Assembly (NCBI GenBank): GCA_965200485.1
Contig: CBDAUD010000001.1
Coordinates: 875,597 to 939,596, forward strand
Source of the DNA: a bacterium
GTDB lineage: Bacteria; JAAXHH01
DNA length: 64,000 nucleotides
Reading direction: 5' to 3'
The translations under genes and the position numbers were made by a program. Shown one piece after another: positions 1-35,579 of this stretch. The notes below the pieces were generated by a model. It saw only the letters and a list, made by a program, of their open reading frames with translations. It had not been told where the DNA came from and searched no databases. The stretch's first letter is position 1. Each line of letters starts with the position of its first letter.

Positions 1-1773
1 GTAAAGGGCCACCGTGAATCCCATCCCGGCGCCGATGTATTCCCATTTTATGAGTTGCCCGATCACATCCGACCCACCCGGCAGAGTCGACTTGATCCAA
101 ATCGTTTCCATAGTTGCCTGTAACGGCCACATTTTTTCCACGAATGGATAGGCCGCCGACGGAATGGGCGCCAGTTTCCAGATCAGCGCATAGAAAAGGA
201 AACTGAAGACGATAAGCAGCAGCAGGCTCAATATATACAACTTGACGAGGCTTGGGAATCGCGTTCGCGTGAGTTCCAGTTGCCGGAACGTAGCGACCAC
301 GCCGCTGTGATCGAAAAGAGGAACCGGGGCGAACCAGATCGCCACACCCCTATAGCCCGAAAGGTAGAAGGAGCCCTCTCTGGCGTAGGGGAAGGAAGAT
401 CCGTAAGGCGATCCCGTCAAACCGATCATGCGTGCGCCGATGTAGGAGAAGAAGGGGGTCCACAGGAATCCGAATAGCACGGAGATCCATACCGGAAACG
501 TCGGTTCCAGGTAGTAGACCAGGAGAATGAAGCACAAGGTGGAAATTGCCCAGAGCGCGATAGGAACAGGCAATCTGAAATCGCCCCGGTCCCGCGGCGG
601 CCGGCGGGGACTCCGGTCTCCGGACGCCGCGCCGGTATCCCTCCACAGCAACCGTACGAAGGTCGCGAGGCCGATCAGACCGATGACCAGCGAGGTGCCG
701 ATGGACGAGAAACTCAGCCAGAAGTCGATGGTGTTGTTGATGGATGTGGGAATGGTGCTCATCCCCGGCGACCAACTGTGCAGCAGGCCGAAATGGTACA
801 AGACAGGGTTGGCGATGAAGGTGAGCACGAAAGAACTGATGAAGGTGCCCACCACGATCCAGAACGGAAGGACGAATCCCACCAGGAGCGTGGCCAGGTC
901 CGTGCCAATTCCGATCGGCGTGGCGGGTATCACATCCCGGAAACGCGGCGTGAAGTCCGCAAAGGGTATGGGAAAGACCTCTACGCCCTTGGTCAGCACC
1001 ACGCCGGAAACGGTCGGCACGACAACGTACAGTATACCCCAGCCCAGGCCGATCATGGCGCCGACGGTGAACAGGCGCCACCGCCAGGTCTCCTCTCCCG
1101 CCGAAGACTCCGCAAGCGCGGTCGCACCCGCCGCCTGCACGGGCGCCAGGGGGAAGGGCAGCCGTTCGGTATCAGCCGTAATGCGGAACAGAACGTATCC
1201 CAGGGAAAGAGCGTTGACGAGGCCGAGTACAGAGACAAGGACCGCCAGGAGCACAGGTTGAAGCCATTCCATGGAGAACAATGTGCGCGTGATCAGCGAT
1301 TCGGACCCGCGGGGCGGTGAAACCCACTGGGGCAGAAGCTGTGCCAGGCCGTCCGCCTGGGGCGACTGGATCAGATACTGAAACCAGATCATCTTGGCAA
1401 ACGGTGCGCCGTGGACCGAAGATCCGGCAGCCATCCCGCTGGCGCCCAGTCCCGTCGCCGCCAGCCCGGCGGCCAGCCAGTACAGGATGATGGCCTCCTG
1501 GGGCTTCAGCTTGATGAACAGCCGCTTTCCTATCTCGATGAACATGATGATGGTGACCCACTCCGCGGCGCCGACGAAGCTCTTGCCAGTCACCAGTTCC
1601 AGGTAGATCGCCCCGGGAAGCATGACCAGGCCGACGAAGAAGGCGGCCCAGACGGTTCTTCTGCTGAACCCGTCCTCGTAGGGCAGGTCATCCGGCACGA
1701 TCTGCCATGGTTCCTCCCGCACCGGAGAACCCGTCTCTTCGTTTTCCCGTTCAGGTCTGGTTTGTTCGTTCAT
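1..1773 (-). CDS. Large polytopic membrane protein, uncharacterised family (paralog A; C-terminus runs off the window edge)
   Basis: Minus-strand frame is open from ATG at 1773-1771 (MNEQTRPERENEETG...) down to position 1 with no stop. The translation is strongly hydrophobic and multi-TM. It shares motif order with the 7524-9518 and 16517-18538 proteins (e.g. RITADTERLPFPLAPVQ vs RRQWVEHEKLVFPIMQIP, followed by analogous W/F-rich segments). It is not in the supplied ORF track because it has no in-window stop. It was translated by eye, so local frame errors are possible. Confidence 0.6.
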   Translation of the reverse strand, partial: MNEQTRPERENEETGSPVREEPWQIVPDDLPYEDGFSRRTVWAAFFVGLVMLPGAIYLELVTGKSFVGAAEWVTIIMFIEIGKRLFIKLKPQEAIILYWLAAGLAATGLGASGMAAGSSVHGAPFAKMIWFQYLIQSPQADGLAQLLPQWVSPPRGSESLITRTLFSMEWLQPVLLAVLVSVLGLVNALSLGYVLFRITADTERLPFPLAPVQAAGATALAESSAGEETWRWRLFTVGAMIGLGWGILYVVVPTVSGVVLTKGVEVFPIPFADFTPRFRDVIPATPIGIGTDLATLLVGFVLPFWIVVGTFISSFVLTFIANPVLYHFGLLHSWSPGMSTIPTSINNTIDFWLSFSSIGTSLVIGLIGLATFVRLLWRDTGAASGDRSPRRPPRDRGDFRLPVPIALWAISTLCFILLVYYLEPTFPVWISVLFGFLWTPFFSYIGARMIGLTGSPYGSSFPYAREGSFYLSGYRGVAIWFAPVPLFDHSGVVATFRQLELTRTRFPSLVKLYILSLLLLIVFSFLFYALIWKLAPIPSAAYPFVEKMWPLQATMETIWIKSTLPGGSDVIGQLIKWEYIGAGMGFTVALY

Positions 1774-1776
1774 CCG

Positions 1777-2934
1777 TTACTCGATTCTCAGGTAGTTCCC
1801 CGCTTTTTCCCATTCCGGCCGTGTCAGGCCGTTCAGGTCCCAAACCACCTCTCCCGCCCGGACGGTCAATAGGCCCCTCAGTCGCTGGGTGCCGCGCATG
1901 CGCGCATGTCCCGAATCGACAAATCCGAATTCCCCGTATTCCAGCTCCAATACGGCGATGTCCGCCTCGGCGCCGATGCTCAGCGTACCGAGTTCGGGAC
2001 GCCGAATGACCCGGGCGGGATTGCGTGTGGAACGCATCACCACGTCCTCCAGCGTCATCCCCATGTTGAGGCACTTCGACATGGTCGCGTTCATGCTCGC
2101 GTTCGGAAGCAGGGCGCTGTCCTTGTGGAGGTCCGTGCTGATCGTATCGGGCAGAAAGCCCTGGGCGATGGCCGGTATGGCGATGCGGAACCAGAAACTG
2201 CCGCCGCCATGGCCGAGGTCGAACAGAATGCCCTTGTCCCGAGCTTCGCGGACGTAGGCGTTTACGCTGCCGTTTTCGTCCAGCAGGGGGATGTGCTGTG
2301 CGTAAACGTGCGTATGTATGTCTCCGGGGTTTAGTTTTTTCAACAGCAGATCCCGGTAGCTTCGGGTCGGTTTCGGTGCGAAATCGATCATGGCGATCGT
2401 ACCGCTGCGTCGGGCGGCCTCCACGGCGCCGTCTACCGCCTCCCAGCCGGGTCCACCGAAGTGGGCTGTCTTGGAGCCGACGACGTGTGCGGGGTATTTG
2501 CTGATCATGGCTGCGCAGAGCGCGGGGTCCATCTCTGAAACGTCCTGTTCCACGGCGCCCTCCATGCCGGCGCCCACGATATTGATCAGCGCCAGGACCC
2601 GGGTCTTCGATTCGGCGATGATCGTGTCCTTGAAATGTTCGAACTTCTTCCAGCCGGCGCCCCCCGTATCCAGCACAGTGGTCACCCCGTTAGGCAGCAC
2701 GTGGGCATCGGGGAACAACCAACCCCGGTAGCCGCCGTAGGCGTGCATATGTATGTCAATCAGTCCCGGCGTAACGTAATGACCATGGACGCGGGCCACC
2801 TTCTGGCCGTGTTCCGCCGGGATATCGTGTTTCATCGCCGCGATCACGCCGTCTTTGACGGCGACGTCCCGGTTTCCGTTAATGCCGTTTTCCGGATCGA
2901 TGACGTGGCCGCCCTTGATGATCAGATCGTACAT
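1777..2934 (-). CDS. Amidohydrolase-superfamily metal-dependent hydrolase (D-aminoacylase/dihydroorotase-like)
   Basis: 385-aa ORF. The N-terminal MYDLIIKGGHVIDPENG...GLIDIHMHAY motif is typical of amidohydrolase TIM-barrel metal-binding HxH. It lies 3 nt upstream of paralog A and 19 nt downstream of the 1522-aa gene. Confidence 0.8.
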   Translation of the reverse strand: MYDLIIKGGHVIDPENGINGNRDVAVKDGVIAAMKHDIPAEHGQKVARVHGHYVTPGLIDIHMHAYGGYRGWLFPDAHVLPNGVTTVLDTGGAGWKKFEHFKDTIIAESKTRVLALINIVGAGMEGAVEQDVSEMDPALCAAMISKYPAHVVGSKTAHFGGPGWEAVDGAVEAARRSGTIAMIDFAPKPTRSYRDLLLKKLNPGDIHTHVYAQHIPLLDENGSVNAYVREARDKGILFDLGHGGGSFWFRIAIPAIAQGFLPDTISTDLHKDSALLPNASMNATMSKCLNMGMTLEDVVMRSTRNPARVIRRPELGTLSIGAEADIAVLELEYGEFGFVDSGHARMRGTQRLRGLLTVRAGEVVWDLNGLTRPEWEKAGNYLRIE

Positions 2935-2953
2935 CGCTGCTCCTCTCCTTCGA

Positions 2954-5900
2954 TTAAAGGGGCGTTTGACGATCGAACTGCTCGATATTCCGGTATCGTG
3001 CCTTTATGGGCTCGGAGATCGTCCGCCATACAAGAAACCGCTTCCTCAATACGGTAAAAAATCGGCGGTTGATCGTCTGCCACTGGGCACGGTCTCCGCT
3101 TCGGCGATGGATCACGATGAAGATGCGATAGAGCCGTTCCTCCGGGATCGGCTCCAGTTGCAAACGAACTTCCTGGCTGATGGCCAGATCATACGGCGCC
3201 AGCCAGACGCTGGCCGTCAGGTGATACGTGTCGAAGGCATCCCCTGGCATCACGTCAAGCATGGCGCCCTCGGTGACGAAGTCTTCCGCTGAACTGTCTT
3301 CATGCGTCCGTAGTACATGGGTCAGATAACCGGCCAGCGGCAACGCCTCGGGGACCGTCACCGTGAAGGGAAACTCGAATTGCCAGTCGTCCTCCTCGGG
3401 CGGCGGGGGCGCCCAGCGCCTGGTGACGTCCTCCACCGTCATGTCGGCCGCCTTTTTCGCCGGGTACAGGGTAGACAGGAAGACGACGACCATTACGACC
3501 ACCGTGGCGTAGACGGTCGACAGCGAGGAGTAGTTGAGCGATAGACCGCCCAGTGCTCCCCACTGCAACAGTCCCATGGTGATGATCTGCCCGAAGAGAT
3601 ACCCGAACACGGCCCCAAGCGTCGCGAATACGGCCGCTTCGGCCATGAATAGCGCGGCGACATGATTCGGCGCCAGACCAACGGCGCTGTACACACCGAT
3701 TTCACGGAACCGCTCGAATACGGCACCCATCATCGTATTCAGCACCAGGAAGGCCGCAATGAGCACCGGAATGATCAGATTGGCCAGGCCGGACACCGAG
3801 GTCGCCCCGAGGGAACTGTATACCTTTACTTCGTCGTCCATGCCAACGAAGACGGCCAGGAGGACGCGCGACATGAAGGATTCTACGGTTTCGCGAAGCT
3901 GATCGCCGTCGGCGAATCCCGCGATGGCCACGGACCGCGTAGACCCGTTCAGGTCGAGCGTCTGGCGATAGGGCACCACCAGCACGTTGCGGGACGGAAG
4001 ATGCTCCGATGCCTGGATCGTCGACATGAACACCTCCACGTCCATCTCGGTCAGGCTGCGGGTCATGGAGAAGCTGGCGGGCATGATGCTCTCATCGTCC
4101 ACGTCCCGGTATGCATCGATCCGGTCGGAATCGAGCAGTCCGATCACGGTGTATTCGCCACCGAGGATCTCGACAGCCGTCGTACCTACGTCGTCCGCCG
4201 TCACATTGAGTCGCTCGGCGAGCTCCGTGGGCAACAGGCAGACGGCCCTTTCGCCCCGGTTGAACCATCTGCCGCCCGGCAACAGATAGCGATCCAGGCC
4301 GGTGATGGACGGCTCGTCGGCATGCAGTCCCAGGATAGATTGCACGGTGGTGGCCGTTCCCTTGCCCGGTACCCGCAGGTCGATGTACGGGCTGCTCAGA
4401 TCTTCGGGCTCGTACCACGAACGGGGCACGATCGTAGCGTGTTCCCGGAAGGCGTTCTCCACGTAGGGCAGGAAGGACGTGGGAAGGGCGTGCCACGACA
4501 GGTTGCGCATGAGGACCCCGTTGTACGACGGGGTGTTTTCGCGGTCCAGGGTATAGAATTGAATGCCGGTCTTGAAGGAAGTAAAGGAAAGCACGGTAAA
4601 GGTCAGGAGGGTCAGGGTTACGGCGGTCAGCGCCGTACGCATCTTCCGCTTTCGCAAGTTGGATATGCCCAGGGATATGGCCACCGCCGTGGCGCTCAGC
4701 CGGCCTATGTCGGCTTCGTGCAGGCCGGTCTCGGGACGGGTCAGGTTCTTCATTTCGGTGTCGAACCGAGAAACGATCATGGTGATGATGATCAGTGCCA
4801 GCGCCAGGATGATAAAGGCGAGAAAGACCATGTACGGTGTCAGGCTCAGCTGAAAGGCGGGGTGCACGTTCTGCAGCAGCATGAAAACCGCCGCAAAGAT
4901 CACGCCGACCGCGAGCAGTTGTTTCCGAATGTCCGTGAATCCGAAGAAAAGGCGTTCGAGGAAGAAGCAGAAGGGGATCAGCAGCATGAAATAGAACACG
5001 ATGCCGTCCACCGTGTCGTCCGCGGCATAGCGGACATCGGGATAGGCTCGCGCCTCGTAGCCCCAGGCCTCTCTCGACCGTGCCGCGAAGGCGTCGTAAC
5101 GACGATTCTCCAACGCTTCGCGCGCCGCACGCAATGCCCGCGTGCTCTCCTCGTGCAATTCGGCTGCCCGGGCGTTGGTCACCCCGTGGTCTTCGAGTTG
5201 CATCAACCGGGCCCGGTTGAGCGACCACAAGTCCAGGGCGCTCTGGTAGAACGGATACAGAATCAGTCCCCGGTCCGGCGTGAATCCACGACCCTGTGCC
5301 CGTGCCATGATCTCGTTGGTGACTTGCTCCGGTGGAAGATCGAGCCACGATTCCGGTGTGTTGGTCAGCAGATACTTGACGCCCAGCGGCCCCGCGCTCA
5401 TGAACACTTTGACCGGGTCCTCGGGCTTGGTGAAGACCACCGCGGCGTTGGTCATCCAGTTGCCGAAGAAACTCTGATCTTCGACGAAAGCCGCGCCGTA
5501 CTTGCGCAGCGGACTGTTGTCCCGGCCGAGCACAGTCAGGTTGTCGAGCGCGGTGAAGACGCCGGGGTCCACGATATCGAAGAGGTTGATCTCTTTGCAG
5601 GGAAAGAGGACCTGTATGGTATTGTTCACCTTGGACGAGTTCGGTACCGCGAGCGGGAAGGTTGCGTCGCCCTCTTCACCCAGATCGGGCGCATACACGA
5701 TCCTGCCTTCGGGATCAAGGCCGTAGCTACGTACTTCCGTTGGTCCTTTGGGCTCACGGACCATGGAGAACCGAAATTGCCCCATTGAATCGGCCTGGGT
5801 AACAATGAAGCCCCGCACCCCGCCGTGGCTCTGATAGCCGGGTTCGTAGACGACCAAGGCATCGGCGACCGGTGTGTTGGGCTTGAAGAAGTCGACGGTA

Positions 5901-7522
5901 CGGTCGAATTCCAGGACCCGGCCTTCAATGTCCCGGCCTTCATCCTTGAGCCGGATGGACTCGTCCACCTCGAAGGCCTCGGGGTCCGAAAGCATGGCCG
6001 GAAGCAGTGTGCCGAGGGTCCTGATCTGACGGACCAGGTTGGGGAAATCGACCTCCTCGATCCGGTCCAGAGGCGTGTCTATGCGCAGCCTGTTGTCGTT
6101 CGCCGTGGCGAAGGTCATCCCGTGCAGTCCGGCGAGCGTGACCATCTCGTGGTCGAAAGCAGGCCGCGCGGGCATATAGCTTTCCTGGGACCTGAGCGAA
6201 GGCGTCAGCGTGTTGAGATAGCGTGTGCGCCTCGGTTCATCATGGTACACGCCGGCCTTGCGGGCATAGTTCACGTAACGGTCCGCATAGGGTTCGTACA
6301 GGATCTTCAGGTTCGGGCCGAAGAAGATGAAATCACCATAGCTGAACAGACCGACCTGGTCCATCCTGCTGGTCAGGTCAAGACCCAGGAACAACGTGAA
6401 GGGGATGCGGTCTTCTTCGGGAATCCGATCCAGGAAAAACTCGTCCGCCCGAAAATGCCGGTCCAGGAAGTCGTTTATGCCCTGCAGCCCGTGGAAATGG
6501 GCGGATGTGGCCAGGAACAGCACGGTGTAGCCGGGTGGATGGGCCCTGAGCACCTCCATCAGTTCTAGCAGAGCGGCGATGCCCCCCGCGCTCTCTGCGC
6601 CCGGGGCCTGCCCCGGCACCACTGACATGGCGTCGTAGAACGCCGACAGCACGACGATCCGATCCTTCCACTTCTCCGTGCCGTCACCGCCGGGATGCGG
6701 CTCATCCCGGCCCGGAATCCATCCCATGACGTTCCAGGTATCGGACCGTTCCCAGCTCATGCGCCCCTTGATCGTCACCTGGACCTCTCCGGTCTGCGCC
6801 GCCTGGAGCACTTCTTCCGCATGGGGATCCGGTATCCAGAACCGTGGAACGTCGGCAGGTACATCCAGGATTTTGCGCTGGGCCTGATTATTGGTTATCG
6901 CGCCCGGACCGCTGTCGTAGAACAGCACGGCCCGCGCACCCAGCATGCGCGCGTTGAGGTACTGGTCGCGTCCGTCGAAATCGACCAGAACGATACTACC
7001 CTCGATGTCTTTGCCGTTGAAGTCCTGGAATGCCCCCCGCCGGCCGTAATGCAGCGGCCCCGTAATCCCTTCGGGAAAGGAATTCAACCGCACGAGATTC
7101 GGCCAGAACTGATACACCGGAAACTCGGTTTCCACCGTGTCGTGTACGGTCAGCGTGAAGCCATGGTCTATCGGAGAGGAAACGGTGAAGGTGTCTATGG
7201 CAACCCGGGAAAGGCCTCCGGCCCGGAATGCGTCGACCACGTACTCCATGGCCGCCCGGTTTCCCGGATAACCGACTACGCGCGACGGATTTTCGCTCAT
7301 TGCCCGAACGTGAGACTCGACGCGTTCCCGGGTAACGATTTCGGAAACCTCTTCCAGGGACACCGGCGCCTCTTCGAGCGGCCTGGGCACCACGTCTCCG
7401 GGCAGCGAGACGACTTTCAGGATCACGTGCTCTGTCACCCAGGCCGGTCCTGCCAAGGCCACGGCGAGAAACAGCAGGACGCCGATGGCTAGAAAGAAGT
7501 ATCCCGATATGCGCGAATACAC
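2954..7522 (-). CDS. Fusion protein: N-terminal TM anchor + PA domain + M28-family Zn aminopeptidase, central TM region, C-terminal MacB/FtsX-type permease domain
   Basis: 1522-aa ORF. The PA-like segment is GSIVLVDFDGRDQYLNARMLGARAVLFYDS. The M28-like segment is ...IVVLSAFYDAMSVVPGQAPGAESAGGIAALLELMEVLRAH. The FtsX signature is VSGLANLIIPVLIAAFLVLNTMMGAVFERFREIGVYSAVGLAPNHVAALFMAEA, which is MacB-like (TERTREIG...). A large extracytoplasmic loop sits between TM1 (MRTALTAVTLTLLTF) and the FtsX helices. The start codon sits 1 nt after the stop of the upstream paralog-B gene. Confidence 0.85.
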   Translation of the reverse strand: MYSRISGYFFLAIGVLLFLAVALAGPAWVTEHVILKVVSLPGDVVPRPLEEAPVSLEEVSEIVTRERVESHVRAMSENPSRVVGYPGNRAAMEYVVDAFRAGGLSRVAIDTFTVSSPIDHGFTLTVHDTVETEFPVYQFWPNLVRLNSFPEGITGPLHYGRRGAFQDFNGKDIEGSIVLVDFDGRDQYLNARMLGARAVLFYDSGPGAITNNQAQRKILDVPADVPRFWIPDPHAEEVLQAAQTGEVQVTIKGRMSWERSDTWNVMGWIPGRDEPHPGGDGTEKWKDRIVVLSAFYDAMSVVPGQAPGAESAGGIAALLELMEVLRAHPPGYTVLFLATSAHFHGLQGINDFLDRHFRADEFFLDRIPEEDRIPFTLFLGLDLTSRMDQVGLFSYGDFIFFGPNLKILYEPYADRYVNYARKAGVYHDEPRRTRYLNTLTPSLRSQESYMPARPAFDHEMVTLAGLHGMTFATANDNRLRIDTPLDRIEEVDFPNLVRQIRTLGTLLPAMLSDPEAFEVDESIRLKDEGRDIEGRVLEFDRTVDFFKPNTPVADALVVYEPGYQSHGGVRGFIVTQADSMGQFRFSMVREPKGPTEVRSYGLDPEGRIVYAPDLGEEGDATFPLAVPNSSKVNNTIQVLFPCKEINLFDIVDPGVFTALDNLTVLGRDNSPLRKYGAAFVEDQSFFGNWMTNAAVVFTKPEDPVKVFMSAGPLGVKYLLTNTPESWLDLPPEQVTNEIMARAQGRGFTPDRGLILYPFYQSALDLWSLNRARLMQLEDHGVTNARAAELHEESTRALRAAREALENRRYDAFAARSREAWGYEARAYPDVRYAADDTVDGIVFYFMLLIPFCFFLERLFFGFTDIRKQLLAVGVIFAAVFMLLQNVHPAFQLSLTPYMVFLAFIILALALIIITMIVSRFDTEMKNLTRPETGLHEADIGRLSATAVAISLGISNLRKRKMRTALTAVTLTLLTFTVLSFTSFKTGIQFYTLDRENTPSYNGVLMRNLSWHALPTSFLPYVENAFREHATIVPRSWYEPEDLSSPYIDLRVPGKGTATTVQSILGLHADEPSITGLDRYLLPGGRWFNRGERAVCLLPTELAERLNVTADDVGTTAVEILGGEYTVIGLLDSDRIDAYRDVDDESIMPASFSMTRSLTEMDVEVFMSTIQASEHLPSRNVLVVPYRQTLDLNGSTRSVAIAGFADGDQLRETVESFMSRVLLAVFVGMDDEVKVYSSLGATSVSGLANLIIPVLIAAFLVLNTMMGAVFERFREIGVYSAVGLAPNHVAALFMAEAAVFATLGAVFGYLFGQIITMGLLQWGALGGLSLNYSSLSTVYATVVVMVVVFLSTLYPAKKAADMTVEDVTRRWAPPPPEEDDWQFEFPFTVTVPEALPLAGYLTHVLRTHEDSSAEDFVTEGAMLDVMPGDAFDTYHLTASVWLAPYDLAISQEVRLQLEPIPEERLYRIFIVIHRRSGDRAQWQTINRRFFTVLRKRFLVWRTISEPIKARYRNIEQFDRQTPL

Positions 7523-7523
7523 G

Positions 7524-9518
7524 CTAGTCTATCCCGTAGATATGATGTCCTGCATGCGGAAACCAGATGTAGTCGACAAGCATGGAGATGACCACGCCGG
7601 TAGCGACGCCGAAAATCAAGCCCAGGAAGAAGGGTTGGCCTTTTCGGTAAAGCTCGATCCCGCCCACCCACATCATGATGCGTTTGATGACCCAGCACAC
7701 GAACATGGACGAGACAATCGCCCGGGCGGGCCAGGAGTATGAAAGGAAAAAACCGAGGGGATGCAGCGGCCAGCCCGGCAACCGGGCCCTGAGCATCATG
7801 AGCAGGAACATGAGCGACCCGCCTACAACAAAGAACATCAGCCGTGCCGTGTCCGGTCCGAAGGGATCCCGGATCTTGGCGAGCGTTTCGTTGTAGGGGA
7901 TGGTCGAACCGATCCGGCCGAACCACCATCCGTTGGTAAACTGACGCGTGCCCTGGTCAAACCCCATGTAGATCGTCCAGACCAGCGAAATCACCACGCC
8001 GACCACCGCGGCGGAAAGGAGTGACCAGCCCAGACCCCGGTGCCAGCGCGTACCGATCTCAGACAGTTTGGCCACCTGCATGAAAGCGGGCATGAAGGTG
8101 GACTTGATCTCGCTGATCGGTCCGTAGGTCTGCGCCATGGCCGTCATGGTGGACATGGAAAGGTTGGCCGAACCGACCGAATAGAAAACGAGAACCTGGG
8201 CGATCATGGGCGAACGCACATAGGGCAGCCCGGCCTCGGCGATGATGCGGGAGACGCCGATATAGATGATGAAGACGCCTGCGAGGAGGAATACGGCAAT
8301 GGGTATGTCCATGCCCAGCTGATTCAGCCAGACCACCCCGTAGACGAACCCCCCGAGAAATCCGAATACCGCGACCCGGTAGGGGAGCATCTCTTCCGCA
8401 TCGTCCAGGTCTGATCTGCGGCCGAACGCCTGGGAGACCACGGCCCGGATATGAAACCTCGCCCGCCAGAGTCCCCACCCCACGAATACGATGAAGGCGC
8501 CCATGTTCTGCCAGTCCAGCATGGGATGGCTCGAGGTGTAATTGTCTCTTCCTGGAATGTCGTACCCGATCCGGTTGGCGATGCCCACCTGGATGATCCC
8601 GAGCATGTAGAACACCCAGAATCCGGCCAGCACGTCCAGATTGACGAAATAGGAAATGCCGAGAATGGCCGGGCGGAAGTTGATTTCCAGCGGGGGAAAT
8701 CCGTCGCCGAAGACGATGGGCGGCGCCGAACCGAAATAGGGAAACTGGGGCACGACCGGCGTGAAGTATCCGATCATGTTGTACATCATCACGCAGAACG
8801 GGATGGAAAAGCCGATCCAGAACCGCTTCTCCGTAAGAAAGGCGGGGACGCGACCCGGACTTTCCATGCCCCGGGTAAAGGCGAGGGGAATCTGCATTAT
8901 GGGGAAGACGAGTTTCTCGTGTTCGACCCACTGGCGCCTGAGGATGACCACAAGACACAGTGCCATGAAGATGAGCGGGATGATGAGGGTGAGCCACCAG
9001 AACAGCGGAATGCCCCACACAGTCCAGGGAATGGAGGCGCCGGGGGGGAGACCGTCTACAAACCACGTGAGGGCATTGCCCTGGTTCGTGACGGTCGCCC
9101 AGGGTTGCAGGTACGGGTAGAAATACTCGGCCCACTGGTTCTCGGGTGTGGCCAACAGGTAGGGGGCCATCAGGGTGGAGATGAACGGCGCGCCCATGCC
9201 GTTGGTCGTAAGGCCCGAAGCCGCCATGCCCATGGCCAGGGGAATGACAAACTCATGGGGCGTAAGCGCCCAGTCGGCTTTCCATTTTGCGAGCCCGACG
9301 TTGAAAATGATCAGATAGGCGAAGGCCAGAAAGAGCGCGCCGATGTGGAGATGATCCGCGCCCAGCTGAGACGAGGCCATGGTGTACTGGAAATAAGGCA
9401 CGATCAGCGAGATCAGGACGACGCTTGCCATCCCGAGGAGAATGGATCGCGGCGTAATGATCCGGGTCGCCGACGCCGGGACGGCGGAGGTGTTCACATT
9501 TTGCTGTACTGAGGCCAT
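7524..9518 (-). CDS. Large polytopic membrane protein, uncharacterised family (paralog B)
   Basis: 664-aa ORF, about 14+ predicted TM helices. It is a clear paralog of 16517-18538, with shared motifs FVDGLPPGASIPWTVWGIPLFWW / FYEGLPSGGTIPWRDWIIPMGWW, RRQWVEHEKLVFP / RKQWIERERLTFP, ARLPGWPLHPLGF / HWWPLHPIGW, and C-terminal VDYIWFPHAGHHIYGID / VDVIWFPNSGHIVETW. I cannot assign a named family from memory. Confidence 0.8.
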   Translation of the reverse strand: MASVQQNVNTSAVPASATRIITPRSILLGMASVVLISLIVPYFQYTMASSQLGADHLHIGALFLAFAYLIIFNVGLAKWKADWALTPHEFVIPLAMGMAASGLTTNGMGAPFISTLMAPYLLATPENQWAEYFYPYLQPWATVTNQGNALTWFVDGLPPGASIPWTVWGIPLFWWLTLIIPLIFMALCLVVILRRQWVEHEKLVFPIMQIPLAFTRGMESPGRVPAFLTEKRFWIGFSIPFCVMMYNMIGYFTPVVPQFPYFGSAPPIVFGDGFPPLEINFRPAILGISYFVNLDVLAGFWVFYMLGIIQVGIANRIGYDIPGRDNYTSSHPMLDWQNMGAFIVFVGWGLWRARFHIRAVVSQAFGRRSDLDDAEEMLPYRVAVFGFLGGFVYGVVWLNQLGMDIPIAVFLLAGVFIIYIGVSRIIAEAGLPYVRSPMIAQVLVFYSVGSANLSMSTMTAMAQTYGPISEIKSTFMPAFMQVAKLSEIGTRWHRGLGWSLLSAAVVGVVISLVWTIYMGFDQGTRQFTNGWWFGRIGSTIPYNETLAKIRDPFGPDTARLMFFVVGGSLMFLLMMLRARLPGWPLHPLGFFLSYSWPARAIVSSMFVCWVIKRIMMWVGGIELYRKGQPFFLGLIFGVATGVVISMLVDYIWFPHAGHHIYGID

Positions 9519-9656
9519 GGAAGAGGCTGGGAACAGATCTCGCGATGTTCGGGCACTGGTTTAGACGAGCGAATGGGTTCAGAATATGTAAGGCGGTACA
9601 TGGGATAAGTCAAAGAAAAACAGCGTCGTCACAAATCCTCCGACAGCGTAGTTCCA

Positions 9657-12278
9657 ATGGTTTTAGTGATTGACACCCCAGTAGTTTACGGGGATATTCA
9701 TATCTTGGATGAGTCCGTTCCATACGAGGATTTCATAGTGAAGGCCGCAATCCGAGCAACCATAGAACACTTTCTGAACAGATACATCGCCTTCATCTGT
9801 CGCCATCCCGCGAAGATCGTCCTGGGTGCGTTGCTCTCGGCCCTGGTCTCTGTTCATTTCACCGCCGGTCTCCAGCTAAAGACGGACTTTGTCGAGCTCC
9901 TGCCCGAGGGCTACCGCAGTGTCGACGACATCCACCGGATCACGGAGCGCGTCGGTGGCATCGGCAACCTGACCGTCGTCATCGAAACGGAAAACCTGGG
10001 CGCCGCCCAGCGATTCGCCGACGACCTTGCCGGCCGGATCCGTTCCGATCTCCCGGAAGGATACGTCCGTTATGTCGAGTACCGGGTGGACGACGAGAAG
10101 CGATTCTATGAAGACCATAAGTACCTCTACGCAGATCTGGAGGACCTGGAAGATATTCAAAGCCGGCTGAGCCGGCAGATCCTGAAGAAGAAACTGGAGC
10201 AGAACCCCCTCTTCGTTTCCGAGGAAGACCTCGGTCTTGAAGTGGAAGACGAACCGTTTACCATAAGCGATCTGGAGGAGAAGTACGAGAACAAGGCGGC
10301 GGAGCAGCTTGACAAGTGGGTAGACGGTTACTTTACGGGACGCGACGACCAGGGGCAGTTTCTCGTCATGATCCTGAAACCCTATGGTTCGTCGACCGGC
10401 GTATCCTTTTCGCGGGATCTGTGCGAACGGGTCATGGCACTCGTGGAATCCCTGGACCCCACTTCCTACCACCCGTCACTTAAGGTGGGTCTCACCGGGA
10501 AATACCGCCTGATCCTCGACCAGTACGCGTCCGTCCAGCGGGAGATCCTTTCTTCCGCGGCCTTTACACTCATCCTGGTCGCCCTGGTCATATTCCTCTA
10601 TTTCCGGACGATCGTCCCGGTCATCAACATTACACTGGTCGTGGTCGTCGGCATACTCTGGACGTTCTGCATCACCTTTTTCCAGATCGGCTATCTGAAC
10701 ATGCAGACGGCCTTTCTGGGCGCCATCATCGTGGGGAACGGCATCAACTACGGCCTGATTCTGATGGCGCGTTACAAGGAAGAGCGCCTGCGTGGTGAAA
10801 ATGCCTTGGACGGCGTGCGAATCGCCTTTCGGAACACCCTTGCGGCGACCATCACCTCCGCGTTGTCGACCGGGCTTGCCTATGGCACCCTCATGATCAC
10901 CGATTTTCGGGGTTTTAGCCATTTTGGTTTCATCGGCGGCCTGGGCATGCTGCTGTGTTGGGTTTCGACATTTTCCATCCTTCCGGCGTTGCTGATGCTA
11001 TGGGACCGTACCGGATTCGGCCGGAAAACCTGGACTCGGAAGGCCTCGCGGGGCAGGGCGCTCACCCGTCTCGCCGACCTGGTGCAGAACGCACCGCGCG
11101 CCGTGGTCGGCACCAGTGTCTCCCTTGTCCTGCTGGGTGCCTTACTGCTGGCGTGGTGGCTTCCGAATTCCTTCGAGTACGATTTCTCGAAACTGCGAAA
11201 CGAGCCGCGGGGAGACACCTACGAACGCATCCTCAACCACCGCGTCAACGCCTTGTTCGGCGTGTCGCAGTCGCCCGCCGTCATTCTGGCGGACCGCCTG
11301 GATCAGGTGCCTGACATCCGTCGTTCCGTCCTGGACAAGAAAGAAGCGGAAAAGAGCGTCCCGAACCCGACTATCGACCGGGTGCGGACCATTTTCGACC
11401 TGCTGCCGGAGGACCAGGAGGACAAACTCGACATGCTCTGGGACATCGAGTACATGCTCGATGCGAATCCGCCCGACGAACTCGGCATCTCACCGGACCA
11501 ACTCGCCAGGATCAACGAATTCCGGGACAACCTGAGCCAGGAGGAAATCACTCTGGATGATCTCCCCCAGGCGCTTAAACGTCCCTTCGAGGAGCGGGAC
11601 GGAACGGCTGGCCGGCTGGTCTACGTCTATCCGAGGCCGGACGCCGGACTCTGGAACGGCAGGAACCTGATCCGGTTCGCGGAAGTCGTCCGCTCCAATC
11701 GTCTGCCAAACGACGAAGTCATCTATTCCTCCGGGGAGGCCGTGGTATTCGCCGACATGCTGAAAGCCGTGGACCGTGACGGCCCAATCGCCACGGTGGC
11801 CTGTTTCCTGGGCGTGATCACGCTCCTCGTACTGGCTTTCCGAAGCATGCACGCATCGATCGTCATCCTGGCCTCTCTGCTGGGCGGCATGCTGGTCATG
11901 GGCGGGGTCATCGCCGTCTTCGACATCAAGGTGAACTTCTTCAACTTTATCGTAATACCTACGACGCTTGGGATCGGTGTGGACTACAGTGTGAATCTGT
12001 ACCAACGCTACCGCCTTGACGGCCGTGGTTCTATCCATAATATGGTACAGCACACAGGCGCGGCCCTGGTCATGTGTTCCTCCACCACACTGATCGGGTA
12101 TACCTCGCTGATGCTGACGTCCAACCGGGGCCTGCATTCCTTCGGGATCATGGCCAACGTGGGCGAGATCGCCACGCTGGCGACAGCCCTGGTCGCGCTG
12201 CCCGCCTATCTGCTCATTATGGAAAAGCGGATGGGGAACAAGGCGCCGGTATCGCCTGAACCGGTCCGCGCCGCGTGA
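9657..12278 (+). CDS. MMPL/RND-superfamily membrane transporter (two 6-TM bundles with large extracytoplasmic domains)
   Basis: 873-aa ORF with two hydrophobic blocks (ILSSAAFTLILVALVIFLYF...GNGINYGLILMARYKEE and VACFLGVITLLVLAFRS...TLGIGVDYSVNLYQRY) typical of the MMPL/SSD architecture. The first 27 codons look non-native. An in-frame GTG at 9738 (VKAAIRATIEHFLNRY...) is a plausible alternative start. Confidence 0.8.
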   Translation: MVLVIDTPVVYGDIHILDESVPYEDFIVKAAIRATIEHFLNRYIAFICRHPAKIVLGALLSALVSVHFTAGLQLKTDFVELLPEGYRSVDDIHRITERVGGIGNLTVVIETENLGAAQRFADDLAGRIRSDLPEGYVRYVEYRVDDEKRFYEDHKYLYADLEDLEDIQSRLSRQILKKKLEQNPLFVSEEDLGLEVEDEPFTISDLEEKYENKAAEQLDKWVDGYFTGRDDQGQFLVMILKPYGSSTGVSFSRDLCERVMALVESLDPTSYHPSLKVGLTGKYRLILDQYASVQREILSSAAFTLILVALVIFLYFRTIVPVINITLVVVVGILWTFCITFFQIGYLNMQTAFLGAIIVGNGINYGLILMARYKEERLRGENALDGVRIAFRNTLAATITSALSTGLAYGTLMITDFRGFSHFGFIGGLGMLLCWVSTFSILPALLMLWDRTGFGRKTWTRKASRGRALTRLADLVQNAPRAVVGTSVSLVLLGALLLAWWLPNSFEYDFSKLRNEPRGDTYERILNHRVNALFGVSQSPAVILADRLDQVPDIRRSVLDKKEAEKSVPNPTIDRVRTIFDLLPEDQEDKLDMLWDIEYMLDANPPDELGISPDQLARINEFRDNLSQEEITLDDLPQALKRPFEERDGTAGRLVYVYPRPDAGLWNGRNLIRFAEVVRSNRLPNDEVIYSSGEAVVFADMLKAVDRDGPIATVACFLGVITLLVLAFRSMHASIVILASLLGGMLVMGGVIAVFDIKVNFFNFIVIPTTLGIGVDYSVNLYQRYRLDGRGSIHNMVQHTGAALVMCSSTTLIGYTSLMLTSNRGLHSFGIMANVGEIATLATALVALPAYLLIMEKRMGNKAPVSPEPVRAA

Positions 12279-12332
12279 CAGCGCCTTCACGACAGTATCG
12301 TCCAGGTAACGGCGTCGAACAAGGCCGGTTAC

Positions 12333-13967
12333 ATGAATCCTCACGCAATGGATTACCGCCAGGTGCTACCGGAGCACCTGCTGCATACCTATCTTGAAGA
12401 TTTCGAGTCGTTGCGGCCGTTCTACGGCCACGGCCCGCGCGACCCGGAGGTCTGGCCGCGCATGATCGAGGCCGTAAGGTCCCGGTCCACACAACCGCCG
12501 CGAAAGGCGCTTGCCCGGATACTCGAGGAACAGAACACTCGGTACGGCGCGGACGAGACCGTCCTCGACAACGCCCGGTCCTTCGCCGGAGAAGATACGT
12601 ACGCGGTTTGCACCGGACAGCAGACCGGACTGTTCACCGGACCGATCTATACCATCTACAAGGCCGTCACGGCTGTGAAGCTGGCAAGGCGGATATCGAG
12701 TGAGACCGGCGCGCGGGTCGTGCCTGTATTCTGGATGGCCGCCGACGACCACGACTACGCCGAGATCAACCACATCCACGTCTGCCGGGCGGACGGAGAC
12801 CCGATACGGTTCGAACTGAGCCCCGCCGACCCCAATGATCGCCGTTCCGCAAGCGCCCGCAAGCTCGGTTCCGGGATCGGACCTCTGCTCGAGCGGCTCG
12901 GCGAGGTTCTGCCCGACTCGGAACACTGTCCGTCCGCAGTCGACGCGCTTCAGCGGAACTGTACGGCGGAGAGCACGCTTTCCGAGGCCTTCGCCCGGCT
13001 CATGACGTTGCTCTTCCGGGGACAGGGCCTGGTGCTTATCGACCCCACCGACTTGGCGCTGAAGCCCCATATGCGTCCTGTCTTCGAACAGGAAATCCGG
13101 CATCCGCTCGCATCCACGCGCTCGGTCCTGACGACTTCGGACAAACTGGCCGATGCGGGATTCGATCCGCAGGTGTCCCGGTCCGCAGACGCGGTGAATC
13201 TGTTTCTTTACCAGGAAGGGCAGCGCAACGCCCTGCGATACGAGAACGGGCGGTTCAGCAACCGGGACCGCAGTCTGTCCTTTACTGCCCAAAGTCTGCT
13301 ACGGCTGCTGGAAGAAAAGCCGGAGAGATTTACCCACAACGTCGTTACCCGGCCACTGGTTCAGGACACGCTGTTTCCTGCGCTGACCTATATCGGCGGT
13401 CCCGCTGAAATCGCCTACTACGGACAGCTTGGCGATGTCTACCGTCAATTCGGTCTGCCCTTCCCCGTGGTTTATCCGCGGGCTTCCCATACGCTGGTGG
13501 GCGCAAGAACCGCCCAGATCATGGAGAAACACGGCCTCACGATCACCCATAGCGTCCAGGGTATCGAATCCGCGTTGGCCCTGAAACTGCGGGAAGAGAT
13601 GCCGGCGCCCATCGTCGAGGGACTACGCGCCGCCCGGGGAGATGTGGAAGCCCACTATAGAAACCTGAAAGGACAGGTTACATCCATCGATCCCGGGTTG
13701 AGCCGGATCGTCGAGGCCTCGGAGAGAAAGACCAACTTCGCCCTGGGCAGGCTGGAGGAAAAGACCCTGCGCGCCTTGAAGAAGGCGGATGGAACCATAC
13801 GCAACCAGATCATGCGGGCCGACCGTCTGGTGTATCCCAACGGGCAGCTCCAGGAACGGGTGGCCAACATCTGGCAGTACGTGGCCCTCCACGGTATCGA
13901 CATCATGAAGACGCTCTTCATGGCTACTGACGAAAACGACTTCAGGCACCGGATCACGCGCTTATGA
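12333..13967 (+). CDS. bshC: Bacillithiol biosynthesis cysteine-adding enzyme BshC
   Basis: 544 aa. Conserved BshC signatures are CTGQQTGLFTGPIYTIYKAVTAVKLA, VFWMAADDHDYAEINHIHV and RFTHNVVTRPLVQDTLFPALTYIGGPAEIAYYGQL. They match B. subtilis BshC (GGQQAGLLTGPLYTIHK..., RFSNNVVTRPLMQEF...IAGPGEINYWGEL). Confidence 0.92.
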   Translation: MNPHAMDYRQVLPEHLLHTYLEDFESLRPFYGHGPRDPEVWPRMIEAVRSRSTQPPRKALARILEEQNTRYGADETVLDNARSFAGEDTYAVCTGQQTGLFTGPIYTIYKAVTAVKLARRISSETGARVVPVFWMAADDHDYAEINHIHVCRADGDPIRFELSPADPNDRRSASARKLGSGIGPLLERLGEVLPDSEHCPSAVDALQRNCTAESTLSEAFARLMTLLFRGQGLVLIDPTDLALKPHMRPVFEQEIRHPLASTRSVLTTSDKLADAGFDPQVSRSADAVNLFLYQEGQRNALRYENGRFSNRDRSLSFTAQSLLRLLEEKPERFTHNVVTRPLVQDTLFPALTYIGGPAEIAYYGQLGDVYRQFGLPFPVVYPRASHTLVGARTAQIMEKHGLTITHSVQGIESALALKLREEMPAPIVEGLRAARGDVEAHYRNLKGQVTSIDPGLSRIVEASERKTNFALGRLEEKTLRALKKADGTIRNQIMRADRLVYPNGQLQERVANIWQYVALHGIDIMKTLFMATDENDFRHRITRL

Positions 13968-14692
13968 AACTGGACATTCTGGCCGTATCCCCCCATCCGG
14001 ACGATGTGGAATTGCACTGCGGCGGTCTGATGATCCGTTTCGCCGACCTGGGGTACGCCACGGGAATCGTCGATATGAGCCTGGGCGAGAAAGGCACCCG
14101 AGGCACGGTCGCCGAACGGAAACGGGAAGCGGCGGCAGCGGCGGAGGTCTTGGGTTTGTCCGAGCGATTGAATCTCGAATTGCCGGACGCCCGAATCGGC
14201 GCCTGCGGGACGCATCGCACCGCCCTCATCGACGCCATACGCCGGTTCCGGCCCGAGATGCTGCTCGTCCCCCACGATGCTGCTCGGCATCCCGACCACA
14301 GCGCGACCGCTCAGTTGGCCAGAGAAGCGGCCTTCGTCGCGGGCCTGGAGAAAGTCGCATCGGATCACCCGGCCTTCCGGCCCCGGCAACAGATTTTCTA
14401 CCTGACCCACCACGCCTTCCGAGACCCGCGTCCGTCTTTCATCGTGGACATCACCTCGACGTTCCACCGCAAGATCGAGGCGGTCAAGGCCCACCGGTCC
14501 CAGTTCCACGATCCCGATTCCACCGAGCCGGACACCTTCATCAGCCGTCCCGAATTCCTGGAAGAGGTGGAGGCGCAGAGCCGCTACTACGGCGGCCTGA
14601 TCGGCGCACGGTACGGAGAGCCCTTCGTTGTCCGCGAGTACCTTTCGATTGATGATCCCCTGGCGCACTTCGCAAAAAGCGGGATGGCATGA
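13964..14692 (+). CDS. bshB: N-acetyl-alpha-D-glucosaminyl L-malate deacetylase BshB (PIG-L/LmbE family)
   Basis: 242 aa. The N-terminal LAVSPHPDDVELHCGG is the PIG-L family metal-binding motif (AHxDDxE). The conserved HPDH is further on. ATGA start/stop overlap with bshC. Confidence 0.88.
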   Translation: MKLDILAVSPHPDDVELHCGGLMIRFADLGYATGIVDMSLGEKGTRGTVAERKREAAAAAEVLGLSERLNLELPDARIGACGTHRTALIDAIRRFRPEMLLVPHDAARHPDHSATAQLAREAAFVAGLEKVASDHPAFRPRQQIFYLTHHAFRDPRPSFIVDITSTFHRKIEAVKAHRSQFHDPDSTEPDTFISRPEFLEEVEAQSRYYGGLIGARYGEPFVVREYLSIDDPLAHFAKSGMA

Positions 14693-14779
14693 CCGCATGA
14701 ACCGGACAGAATCGCTCCTCGCCCGGTCCGGAATACCTGTTTTGAAGAGACGGACAACCCGCAACCCGAGGTCATCGAG

Positions 14780-15901: not shown

Positions 15902-15986
15902 CGGCATACCGCACAACCGGTGGCCCCGGTCGCGACCGCTCCGGATGCCCGGTTACGCGTCAGGCCGCCGAGTATTGCCGTTGCGG

Positions 15987-16516: not shown

Positions 16517-18538
16517 TTACCACGTCTCTACGATATGGCCCGAGTTGGGAAACCAGATTACATCGACGCCGTAGGAAAGCGCCACGCCCAGCACATAACC
16601 CACCAGCATCCCGATGAAGAACGGTTGTGCCTGGCGATAGAGTCTCGTGCCGCCAAGTTTCAGGATCACCGCCTTGATCAGCCAGACGATGAAGAGCGAC
16701 GTGGCGATCATCCCGATACCCCAGGTTTTCGCGACTGCCCAGCCGATGGGATGCAGCGGCCACCAGTGGAAGTTGTGGTGCGCCAGGATGAGCAGCCAGG
16801 CGACGAACGCCCCGATCCCGAGGCCGGCGTACTCGCCGCCGGTCAACTGGGTCTGATTGTTGATCCACGTCGTCAGCGTTTCGTATCCCGCTTTCGCGTT
16901 GCCGAAGGCGTCGGCGAATCCGTCCGCACCGGTGGTCGTGTAACCCAGGAAGATGGTGTACACCACCGAAATGGCACCGGCGACGAGAAGCGCCGATACG
17001 ATGACGGGAAAGATGCCGCGTCGGGCGCCGCCGACCTCGTCGCCCACCTTGTTTACGTGGGCAATGGCGCACATGCCCAGCGTGCGCCAGTTCCGCGAAA
17101 AGGTCTGCGAAAGGGTCAACATGGTGAGGTCCGCCCGGTGCAGGTTTGCCGAACCAAAGGAAAAAACGGTGAAATCATGGGCATTGTAGGGCAGGTCCAG
17201 ATTGATCAGCCCCGCTTCCGCCACCACGCGGGTAACGCCCAGAAAGAGCAGCAGGCTGGTGGCCAGGAGTGTTGCCGCGGCGGCGACGGACATGCCCATG
17301 CCGATCAGAAAGAAAAACATGTATGCGATGCCTATCACAACCCCCCCCATGGCGGTCCTGTACGAGAAGAACTCCCCGGAATCGTCAATGTCCCGCCCCC
17401 GGCCGACAGCCTTTCTTACGACGTCGCAGAGGTGGCGGCGCGCCATCCACAGTCCGAAGAGGGTGTACATGAAAAAGCCGCCCAGGTGCTGGGCCGTTAC
17501 GATTTCGGTCGTCTTTGGAATGCCGAATCGGCTCATGATACCGATCTGGATCGTGGCCAGCAGGAAGAACACCCAGATACTGAACAGGATGTTCAGCTCG
17601 GTAAAGAACCCGACACCGATAAAAGCGAAATTGATCTTGAACTGAATCGGCGGAAAGGATTCGGCCAGGGTGATCGGTATGCGGTAGTCCCCGCCCAGTT
17701 TGATGGGGGGCACGACGTCCCAGTACGAGACGATGTTCCAGACGATGATAAAGAGCGGGATGGAAAATCCGTACCAGAATACCGCGGACCGGGCGACCCG
17801 GGGCAACGCGGAACCGCTTTCGTCTTCTTCGATGAGCAGCAGCGGCACGCGCGCCAGCGGAAAGGTCAGTCGCTCCCGTTCGATCCACTGCTTGCGCAGG
17901 ATCACCATGAGCGATGCGCTGGCGAAGAACAGGGCTACAAAGAACGATCCCCACCAGCCCATGGGAATGATCCAGTCTCGCCAGGGTATGGTGCCGCCCG
18001 ACGGCAGCCCCTCGTAGAACCAGTGTACCGCGTTCCGTTCGTCCGGGACGATCAGCCAGGCAGGCAGGTATTCGAAGAACAGTTCCACGTACCGGTTCTC
18101 GGAGTTGGCGTAGTAGTGGGGAATGGAGGGTATGGCAACCCAGTAGGTGGTAAAGGCCCATCCTGGAATGGCCGATGCCGTGAACACGATGAAGAAGATG
18201 ATGATCAGTTCCTGCGGGGTGAAGGCCCGCGCGGGCGCGAATCGCTTCAGCAGACCGTTCACGACGAAAACGACCAGCATGAAGGGGAAGAGCGCCGCCA
18301 TGGGCAGATGAGTAATGGAAAGGTAGGAGGAATGGGCTTCGAAGGCGGAATGAACGACCCACCAGGCCATCGACGCAGACAGGACGAGTCCGAGACCCAC
18401 CGCCCGAAGGGTCATGCCCGAAGCGAGGCCCCGGGCTCCGGCGGAAGCGCGTGTTTCGGTAGAATGGGAATCCGGCTCCCCGGATGGCGGGGAAGACCGC
18501 GGTCGGACACGCATGGATTTAGCGTTTGAGGGGGACAA
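16517..18538 (-). CDS. Large polytopic membrane protein, uncharacterised family (paralog C)
   Basis: 673-aa ORF. It is multi-TM and shares the conserved motifs of 7524-9518 (see that entry). The first about 40 residues are Ser/Pro/Arg-rich, so the real start may be the internal Met at about 18415 (MTLRAVGLGLVL...). Confidence 0.8.
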   Translation of the reverse strand: MSPSNAKSMRVRPRSSPPSGEPDSHSTETRASAGARGLASGMTLRAVGLGLVLSASMAWWVVHSAFEAHSSYLSITHLPMAALFPFMLVVFVVNGLLKRFAPARAFTPQELIIIFFIVFTASAIPGWAFTTYWVAIPSIPHYYANSENRYVELFFEYLPAWLIVPDERNAVHWFYEGLPSGGTIPWRDWIIPMGWWGSFFVALFFASASLMVILRKQWIERERLTFPLARVPLLLIEEDESGSALPRVARSAVFWYGFSIPLFIIVWNIVSYWDVVPPIKLGGDYRIPITLAESFPPIQFKINFAFIGVGFFTELNILFSIWVFFLLATIQIGIMSRFGIPKTTEIVTAQHLGGFFMYTLFGLWMARRHLCDVVRKAVGRGRDIDDSGEFFSYRTAMGGVVIGIAYMFFFLIGMGMSVAAAATLLATSLLLFLGVTRVVAEAGLINLDLPYNAHDFTVFSFGSANLHRADLTMLTLSQTFSRNWRTLGMCAIAHVNKVGDEVGGARRGIFPVIVSALLVAGAISVVYTIFLGYTTTGADGFADAFGNAKAGYETLTTWINNQTQLTGGEYAGLGIGAFVAWLLILAHHNFHWWPLHPIGWAVAKTWGIGMIATSLFIVWLIKAVILKLGGTRLYRQAQPFFIGMLVGYVLGVALSYGVDVIWFPNSGHIVETW

Positions 18539-35545: not shown

Positions 35546-35579
35546 CGGGACAAAGGCGGAACAGCGACGGGACCGTACC

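Follow-up and report, generated by a model that had tools for sequence, protein, structure and literature searches.

To our knowledge, every characterised protein of the FtsX/MacB type is driven by an ATPase, as in the Lol, MacAB, FtsEX, HrtBA, BceAB and YbbAP systems. The protein described here, which we call BIG (1,522 amino acids [aa]; minus strand, 2954..7522), is encoded in a 64,000-nucleotide stretch of bacterial DNA (contig CBDAUD010000001.1 of GenBank assembly GCA_965200485.1, positions 875,597 to 939,596), hereafter the window. With MacB, LolCDE, HrtBA and BceAB, which are type VII ABC systems, it shares a four-helix FtsX bundle, an elbow helix, a periplasmic domain between transmembrane (TM) helices 1 and 2 and an ER..EIG coupling helix. 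Unlike them, BIG has no fused nucleotide-binding domain (NBD; none in 379 family proteins) and rarely a neighboring one (2 of 64 loci have one within 5 kb); it adds three TM helices, an N-terminal ectodomain of about 800 aa (residues ~28 to 827) and a unique C-terminal domain, and the partner conserved beside it is neither an ATPase nor an adaptor or lipoprotein but resembles a secondary transporter. The FtsEX-EnvC, PcsB and RipC systems are like BIG in that an FtsX-family module is tied to an extracytoplasmic hydrolase-like domain; in BIG, however, this domain is of the M28/PA rather than the LytM, CHAP or NlpC type and lies N-terminally with TM helices of its own, its catalytic residues are non-canonical, and there is neither an FtsE in the window nor a division context. 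We give roughly an even chance to the proposal that BIG, on a MacB/FtsX scaffold that probably works free of ATP, is an accessory subunit, either receptor or gate, to a proton-driven importer of the OPT type.

The BIG reading frame runs unbroken through 1,522 codons and a stop, and its GTG start follows the stop of the upstream gene by 1 nucleotide (nt). Three Pfam domains score above their cut-offs: PA (PF02225; residues 154 to 214, 26.8 bits versus 23.9), Peptidase_M28 (PF04389; residues 284 to 497, 30.5 bits versus 21.3) and a single FtsX domain (PF02687; residues 1252 to 1361, 51.3 bits versus 25.5), the last being present in 27 of 27 family members. A homolog search with BIG returned 758 proteins, most of them about 1,500 aa long and aligned end to end; the closest, from a Gemmatimonadetes metagenome-assembled genome (MAG), is 87% identical, has the same length and is 100% aligned. 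The fusion is therefore real and not a frameshift artifact, and the intact open reading frame (ORF) and full-length homologs rule out two genes merged by error. A preliminary description of the window, made from the letters alone, had placed a PA/M28 module and an FtsX permease on one 1522-aa chain encoded by a single gene, and both points are borne out. It had also named MacB_PCD, which Pfam does not call in BIG itself; the domain is called in 6 of the 27 family members, and the predicted structure has its fold. NCBIfam gave only weak partial matches in the FtsX part, to LolC, MacB and ADOP.

Proteins of this family occur in at least 593 species-level genomes (from a scan of one genome per species) and form about 1,250 clusters at 50% identity. 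They come from Latescibacterota, Gemmatimonadota, Zixibacteria, Planctomycetota and Omnitrophota, and a genome often holds several paralogs. The only labels in public records are "FtsX-like permease family protein," "M28 family peptidase," "DUF6785 family protein" and "hypothetical." Our literature search returned nothing on M28-FtsX fusions or ATPase-less FtsX proteins, and we came upon no earlier description of the family. Some members are giants (P0242, 3,053 aa; P0245, 2,930 aa; P0249, 2,769 aa; P0256, 2,451 aa), with an N-terminal extension of about 1,100 to 1,270 aa ahead of M28 or with large ectodomain insertions.

We derived the layout of BIG from hydropathy and from an AlphaFold2 (AF2) model of residues 825 to 1522 (77-sequence alignment; mean predicted local distance difference test [pLDDT] score, 84.8), which together predict eight TM helices (Table 1). 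At the poorly conserved N terminus, an ALA|G motif at residues 22 to 25 is a candidate signal peptide site. The ectodomain continues beyond its M28-like part with residues 501 to 827, which look beta-rich and then helical by eye and have no sequence match in Pfam or the PDB. Loops of the three extra TM helices are conserved, with the invariant columns ERL..FG and VHPAF.LS.SPY. Because FtsX TM1 runs from inside to outside and the number of extra helices is odd, the PA/M28 region is predicted to be periplasmic. In this topology it forms an independent ectodomain at the N terminus, flanked by TM helices that belong to it, instead of being inserted at the FtsX periplasmic tip; the stalk domain (residues 982 to 1244) is distinct from it, and the location at the tip of the stalk entertained in the preliminary description does not fit.

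From the elbow helix onward, the model has the MacB fold. The motif LGISNLRKRK.RT.LT is typical of the MacB/LolC N terminus, the domain between TM1 and TM2 resembles the periplasmic domains of MacB and LolE in Foldseek comparisons (5c59 and 5udf; TMt, 0.53 to 0.55), and the coupling-helix motif reads ERFREIGVYS (residues 1270 to 1279). TM2 to TM4 with the coupling helix form the most conserved part of BIG (mean conservation, 0.85). Against the PDB, Foldseek ranked MacB (5gko, E = 1e-11) with Spr0694-0695, LolC/E, HrtB and BceB for residues 825 to 1522, and the best structures for the MacB/FtsX module were 5gko, 5xu1, 5nik, 9rld and 7w7a.

The chain ends in a domain predicted to be cytoplasmic, modeled as β-α-β4-α (residues ~1379 to 1517; pLDDT, about 85 to 95). 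An exhaustive HMMER search of 1.84 billion representatives returned 1,250 matches to it, nearly all at the extreme C terminus of proteins of 1,450 to 1,900 aa and a few in proteins of up to 3,053 aa. Shorter architectures were considered and rejected, as the matches of 600 to 1,050 aa are N-terminally truncated fragments. The profile of this domain had no sequence match in the PDB. Extra TM helices and such a domain had been expected; the helices number three (residues 828 to 928), and the domain measures about 160 aa rather than 190.

We read the M28-like pocket from an alignment of BIG with 2ek8 and YwaD, two active aminopeptidases that contain a PA domain, and from 121 sequences of the family. 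The family profile matches 2ek8 (E = 9e-19) and YwaD and also Nicalin and the transferrin receptor TfR1. Not one of the 121 members has the full canonical M28 set H-D-D-E-E-D-H, so that the zinc aminopeptidase of the preliminary description lacks its canonical co-catalytic site. BIG itself carries F295, D297, E310, H342, F343, D382, H458 and E459. Of these, D297, E310, H342, D382 and E459 are essentially invariant across the family, and the pocket has therefore been remodeled under selection rather than left to decay. Judged by its sequence, the M28 domain is a remodeled TfR/Nicalin-like pocket with a non-canonical metal site. TfR, GCPII, Nicalin and nicastrin likewise have membrane-anchored ectodomains in which a PA domain interrupts an M28 fold, several of them being non-catalytic receptors, and the zinc ligands of BIG are degenerate as in TfR and Nicalin. 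Unlike these proteins, BIG is bacterial, is fused to a MacB-type module and has a new, essentially invariant residue set, which implies a pocket that is probably kept but different from that of TfR and Nicalin.

Immediately upstream of BIG lies the gene for a polytopic membrane protein with DUF6785 and DUF6784 domains. Its AF2 model (pLDDT, 91.9; predicted TM-score [pTM], 0.92) was matched by Foldseek to barley Yellow Stripe 1 (HvYS1; 7wst/7wsr, E = 7e-9 to 1e-8) over about 695 columns, with TMq of 0.62 to 0.65, TMt of 0.68 to 0.71 and 13% identity. YS1 was the sole significant PDB structure match (next E, 0.017). Sequence searches gave no such link: the protein had no match to Pfam OPT (PF03169) even at E ≤ 10, the DUF6785 profile found nothing among PDB sequences, YS1 included, single-sequence PDB searches of the partners were likewise empty, and NCBIfam held nothing for the OPT-like partner genes. 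A second partner, encoded at the edge of the window (1..1776, minus strand), belongs to a family without a Pfam model that we call fam661; its ORF is 47% identical to a 661-aa gene that follows a Planctomycetota BIG homolog (L003:15588-17573). Alignment of fam661 with DUF6785/6784 by hhalign covers the whole length (564 columns; probability 90%, E = 1.7e-6), and 1 of 23 fam661 members matches Pfam OPT (PF03169; E = 9.3e-10); the fam661 profile had no sequence match in the PDB. Three independent links, namely the YS1-like predicted fold, the Pfam OPT match and the hhalign alignment, suggest that both partner families belong, at the level of fold, to the OPT superfamily, whose YS1 member is also of similar size (~660 aa). 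By analogy with YS1, a proton-coupled, homodimeric, elevator-type OPT-family symporter (PMC9691689; family reviewed in PMC3061005), the partners may be proton symporters. We found no paper mentioning DUF6785, DUF6784 or PF20581.

These genes form an operon in the order OPT-like 1 (DUF6785/6784), BIG, amidohydrolase, OPT-like 2 (fam661), with gaps of 1, 19 and ~3 nt. We examined the linkage in 80 of the at least 593 loci and based counts on the 64 with at least 5 kb on both sides; the sampled BIG proteins are 37 to 88% identical to the query and come from Gemmatimonadota, Latescibacterota, Omnitrophota and others. Every one of the 64 loci has an OPT-like gene within 10 kb of BIG; in 54 such a gene lies no more than 3 kb away on the same strand, and in 42 no more than 600 bp away. 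Two or more OPT-like genes are present in 38 loci, and one of each kind in 31. Where one genome holds two BIG paralogs, each has its own OPT-like partners. In one Latescibacterota lineage the two proteins are naturally fused: P0337 (2,120 aa; L087 6001-12363, a single ORF in its contig) carries a complete DUF6785 domain (E = 2e-88) C-terminal to BIG, and at least four independent full-length copies exist, as well as NCBI MEE2729158.1; P0394, P0398, P0400 and P0401 are in the cluster of P0337. The L087 fusion gene is flanked by FG-GAP/ASPIC, sulfatase and PhyH genes.

The amidohydrolase, whose product just exceeds the NCBIfam cut-off for PRK09237 (371.3 bits versus 371), occupies the same operon position throughout the window's clade (L005 to L013) and is specific to that clade. 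There, genes for a D-2-hydroxyacid dehydrogenase and an Ldh_2 protein (malate/L-lactate dehydrogenase family) follow 3' of fam661 (L005 17884-20116), and their annotation, with that of the amidohydrolase, gives a hint that an amide-linked hydroxy- or keto-acid compound is broken down. In other clades the neighbors of BIG include secreted or surface proteins with type IX secretion system (T9SS) sorting domains, discoidin, laminin-G and FG-GAP/ASPIC proteins, sulfatase-related proteins, a phosphoesterase and conserved unknowns. As annotated, this pattern fits substrate-utilization loci, and such neighborhoods therefore favor an uptake system for BIG and its OPT-like partners. A Latescibacterota clade also has two conserved proteins without Pfam domains (~876 aa and ~550 to 640 aa) directly upstream of BIG on the same strand (L051 5206-9131; equivalents in L052 to L064 and in L033, L037, L066 and L081), preceded by paralogous T9SS-CTD/discoidin proteins; this pair may be a further component of that clade's system. 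An Rfam scan of window positions 1 to 20,000 found no riboswitch, and a promoter/terminator scan gave a result below chance expectation.

The receptor-or-gate proposal can be laid out as follows. BIG and an OPT-like transporter would form a complex in the inner membrane of the Gemmatimonadota bacterium, with the TfR/GCPII/Nicalin-like PA-M28 domain placed in the periplasm next to the MacB-type periplasmic domain. The ectodomain would capture, and possibly trim, a periplasmic substrate that may be peptide-like, amide-linked or a chelate, and would hand it to the OPT-like transporter or transporters, which would import it by means of the proton gradient; cytoplasmic enzymes would then break it down. 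The MacB/FtsX module would serve as scaffold or gate without a dedicated ATPase, and the family-specific C-terminal domain would lie at the cytoplasmic face, where an NBD would otherwise dock. As a broader and more tentative idea, in which our confidence falls somewhat short of even, the whole family may be an ATP-independent descendant of MacB/FtsX proteins that lost the ATPase, gained the C-terminal domain in cis instead, acquired a TfR-like pseudo-peptidase ectodomain and became a periplasmic receptor or gate for proton-driven OPT-type transporters. The TRAP and TTT binding-protein-dependent secondary transporters offer a functional analogy only, in that an extracytoplasmic binding module feeds an ion-gradient-driven transporter; unlike them, the proposed receptor BIG is TM-anchored and 1,522 aa long, and there is no sequence or fold relation.

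Four observations weigh against this proposal. The part of BIG that is most conserved includes the very coupling helix (ER.REIG) through which MacB-type transporters contact their NBD. Three loci (L024, L067 and L070) carry genes for a mini-FtsX (214 to 220 aa) and an ABC ATPase 3' of BIG-fam661 on the same strand. DUF6785 transporters do not all need BIG: a paralog in the window, 32% identical to the first copy, and others elsewhere (L085 and L086) stand without BIG, which suggests that it assists only some of them as an accessory. Finally, hydrolysis could still be supported by the invariant acidic residues together with the His that replaces the catalytic Glu; work on the E151H variant of AAP (the protein crystallized as 2anp) reportedly indicates that a Glu-to-His change need not abolish M28 activity.

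The first two of these observations bear on a different reading, in which BIG is a genuine mechanotransducer of the type VII ABC kind and the gene for its ATPase lies elsewhere in the genome; the enzyme may be shared with another MacB/Lol-type system or come from a mini-FtsX/NBD pair. Hydrolysis of ATP would then move the periplasmic domains so as to load, gate or regulate the OPT-like partner or to extract a membrane substrate. The strictly conserved coupling-helix motif and the complete MacB fold, periplasmic domain included, are what such a machine would have. We found no ABC ATPase in the window, as the preliminary description had stated: genuine coding frames contain no Walker A or LSGGQ motif, and three ABC ATPase queries, compared by phmmer without filters with all six-frame segments of the window, reached a best E value of 1.8. 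In 62 of the 64 loci there is no ABC ATPase within 5 kb of BIG, and those found within 10 kb (11 of 64) are mostly about 8 kb off; the one examined, in L001, belongs to an unrelated ABC importer, as BPD_transp_1 permease genes directly follow it. The lack of any fused NBD in 379 family proteins and the conserved cis C-terminal domain after TM4 also argue against an ATPase in trans.

The mini-FtsX/ATPase pairs (L070 16381-17792; L067 18164-19685; L024 ~9502-11000) point both ways. The BIG proteins of these three loci are only 43 to 54% identical to one another, and the pairing is therefore not an accident of a single lineage. The mini-FtsX lacks a periplasmic domain, and in L070 a GAF-GGDEF gene comes next. 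A role as a BIG-specific paralog in a heterodimer is unsupported, as the mini-FtsX is a generic MacB-like FtsX 29% identical to BIG; the ATPases have a permease of their own, and the pair may be a self-contained ABC system. It may be the missing ATPase of those lineages or an unrelated system. Because of these loci and the conserved coupling helix, we keep an ATPase acting in trans as the leading alternative, one that is unlikely rather than implausible.

We consider improbable the mechanism offered in the preliminary description, by which an active M28 aminopeptidase would be switched allosterically and in cis by the FtsX module, much as in FtsEX-EnvC, for example for cell wall or peptide hydrolysis. 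M28 and PA score above their Pfam thresholds, and five residues are invariant at the former active site; yet not one of the 121 members has the canonical zinc ligands and catalytic Glu, the predicted topology keeps the ectodomain apart from the FtsX periplasmic domain, and the neighborhood lacks cell division or cell wall genes. The Pfam annotation of the window's genes includes no EnvC-, PcsB- or RipC-like gene, and FtsX equivalog models score 8.8 to 9.4 bits on BIG against cut-offs of 250 to 255 (weak FtsX matches, E = 0.19 to 0.8). Two or more paralogs per genome in variable substrate-utilization contexts also speak against such a device, and the idea had overlooked the OPT-like partners. 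More doubtful still is export, in which the OPT-like protein and the MacB-like periplasmic domain would expel a peptide or siderophore-like chelator to the periplasm or outer membrane. In its favor, proteins of the MacB family export or extract their substrates, and an MMPL/RND-type gene lies divergently upstream in the window's clade; but no membrane fusion, outer membrane factor or biosynthetic genes are conserved nearby, the genes that are conserved there encode catabolic enzymes and secreted proteins of a binding or hydrolase-like kind, and characterized OPT/YSL proteins are importers (PMC9691689, PMC3061005).

One further FtsX-family permease invites comparison. ADOP, the "duplicated orphan permease," is annotated as lacking an adjacent ATPase. 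Its model (TIGR03434) matches the FtsX part of BIG weakly (E = 8.6e-5; 20.8 bits versus a cut-off of 622.3); unlike ADOP, BIG has one FtsX domain instead of two, and ADOP has no M28, PA or C-terminal domain of this kind.

Table 1. Predicted features of BIG, state of its M28-like pocket in the family, and OPT-like and operon genes in the window
Feature	Coordinates in window	Strand	BIG residues	Basis or remark
BIG, whole ORF including stop	2954..7522	-		PA/M28-like + three TM helices + MacB/FtsX module + C-terminal domain
N-terminal hydrophobic segment	7442..7510	-	5-27	Hydropathy 2.49; anchor or cleavable signal peptide
PA-inserted M28-like periplasmic domain	6023..7354	-	~57-500	Pfam, profile matches
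Remaining ectodomain	5042..6022	-	501-827	Conserved across family
Three extra TM helices	4739..5041	-	828-859, 865-892, 895-928	AF2 pLDDT 75-91
Cytoplasmic elbow helix and FtsX TM1	4583..4708	-	939-980 (elbow 939-958, TM1 960-980)	AF2, Foldseek MacB/LolC
MacB-type α/β periplasmic domain between TM1 and TM2	3791..4579	-	982-1244	AF2 pLDDT mostly >90
FtsX TM2-TM4 with coupling helix	3440..3787	-	TM2 1246-1270, coupling helix 1272-1280, TM3 + TM4 1285-1361 (AF2)	Pfam FtsX; PDB matches YtrF, MacB, LolC
C-terminal cytoplasmic alpha/beta domain, ~160 aa	2957..3439	-	1362-1522	AF2, family signature
Canonical first zinc His			295	Family: Tyr, Phe or His
Canonical bridging Asp			310	Family: Glu, 118/121
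Canonical catalytic Glu			342	Family: His, 121/121
Canonical zinc-ligand Glu			343	Family: Phe, 108/121
Canonical zinc Asp			382	Family: Asp, kept
Canonical last zinc His			458	Family: Ser, His, Ala or Asn
Upstream partner, 664-aa DUF6785+DUF6784 polytopic membrane protein	7524..9518	-		Pfam E 4e-109 and 9e-23
Cytoplasmic amidohydrolase/deacetylase-family metallohydrolase, 385 aa	1777..2934	-		Pfam Amidohydro_1/3
Second partner fam661, polytopic membrane protein	1..1776	-		Homology; C terminus cut by window edge
Second DUF6785+DUF6784 paralog, not adjoining any BIG	16517..18538	-		Pfam E 1e-113 and 8e-23

By Pfam annotation, the other genes of the window make up an ordinary chromosomal region. 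The MMPL/RND-type transporter gene (9657-12278, plus strand) is divergent from the operon, and its position is conserved in L005 to L013. It is followed by a row of bacillithiol genes (12333-15901, plus strand), namely bshC (Rossmann-like_BshC and CC_BshC), a bshB-like PIG-L deacetylase and a bshA-like GT4 glycosyltransferase, and then by a rhodanese gene (15987-16433, minus strand). The second DUF6785 gene is masked in naive longest-ORF calling by a spurious plus-strand ORF (16457-18529) with a third-codon-position GC content (GC3) of 0.57. Farther along, a multiheme cytochrome c7-like protein, a 1,011-aa Fe-S protein and an NrfD-like membrane subunit are encoded in a row (34877-40063, plus strand), which we take to resemble a module of the Alternative Complex III (ActA/B/C) type. 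Between about 44700 and 51600, GC content drops to 0.54 to 0.57 from ~0.60 and GC3 is low; this region, which holds a 595-aa ORF with no Pfam match (44769-46556; GC3, 0.43) and a 717-aa surface-type protein with leucine-rich repeat and Big_2 domains (47759-49912), may be a horizontally acquired island.

There is a substantial chance that BIG and its OPT-like partners represent a new kind of system. We know of no OPT protein that works with an FtsX-type or M28-type partner, and the OPT superfamily is sparsely studied in bacteria; DUF6785, DUF6784 and the unnamed fam661 now gain a place in it at the level of predicted fold. BIG would also add a bacterial PA/M28 "pseudo-peptidase" ectodomain on a membrane machine, comparable to nicastrin, Nicalin and TfR. 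Homologs in Gemmatimonas MAGs (L069 and L072) may open cultivable relatives to experiment. If the proposal is true, BIG would be the first FtsX-type mechanotransmission module to work with a secondary transporter instead of an ATPase, which would change the view of the role of the FtsX fold and define an unrecognized class of bacterial uptake system. The variable substrate-utilization neighborhoods suggest that this system may be a major route of nutrient uptake in poorly studied phyla of the FCB group and their relatives.

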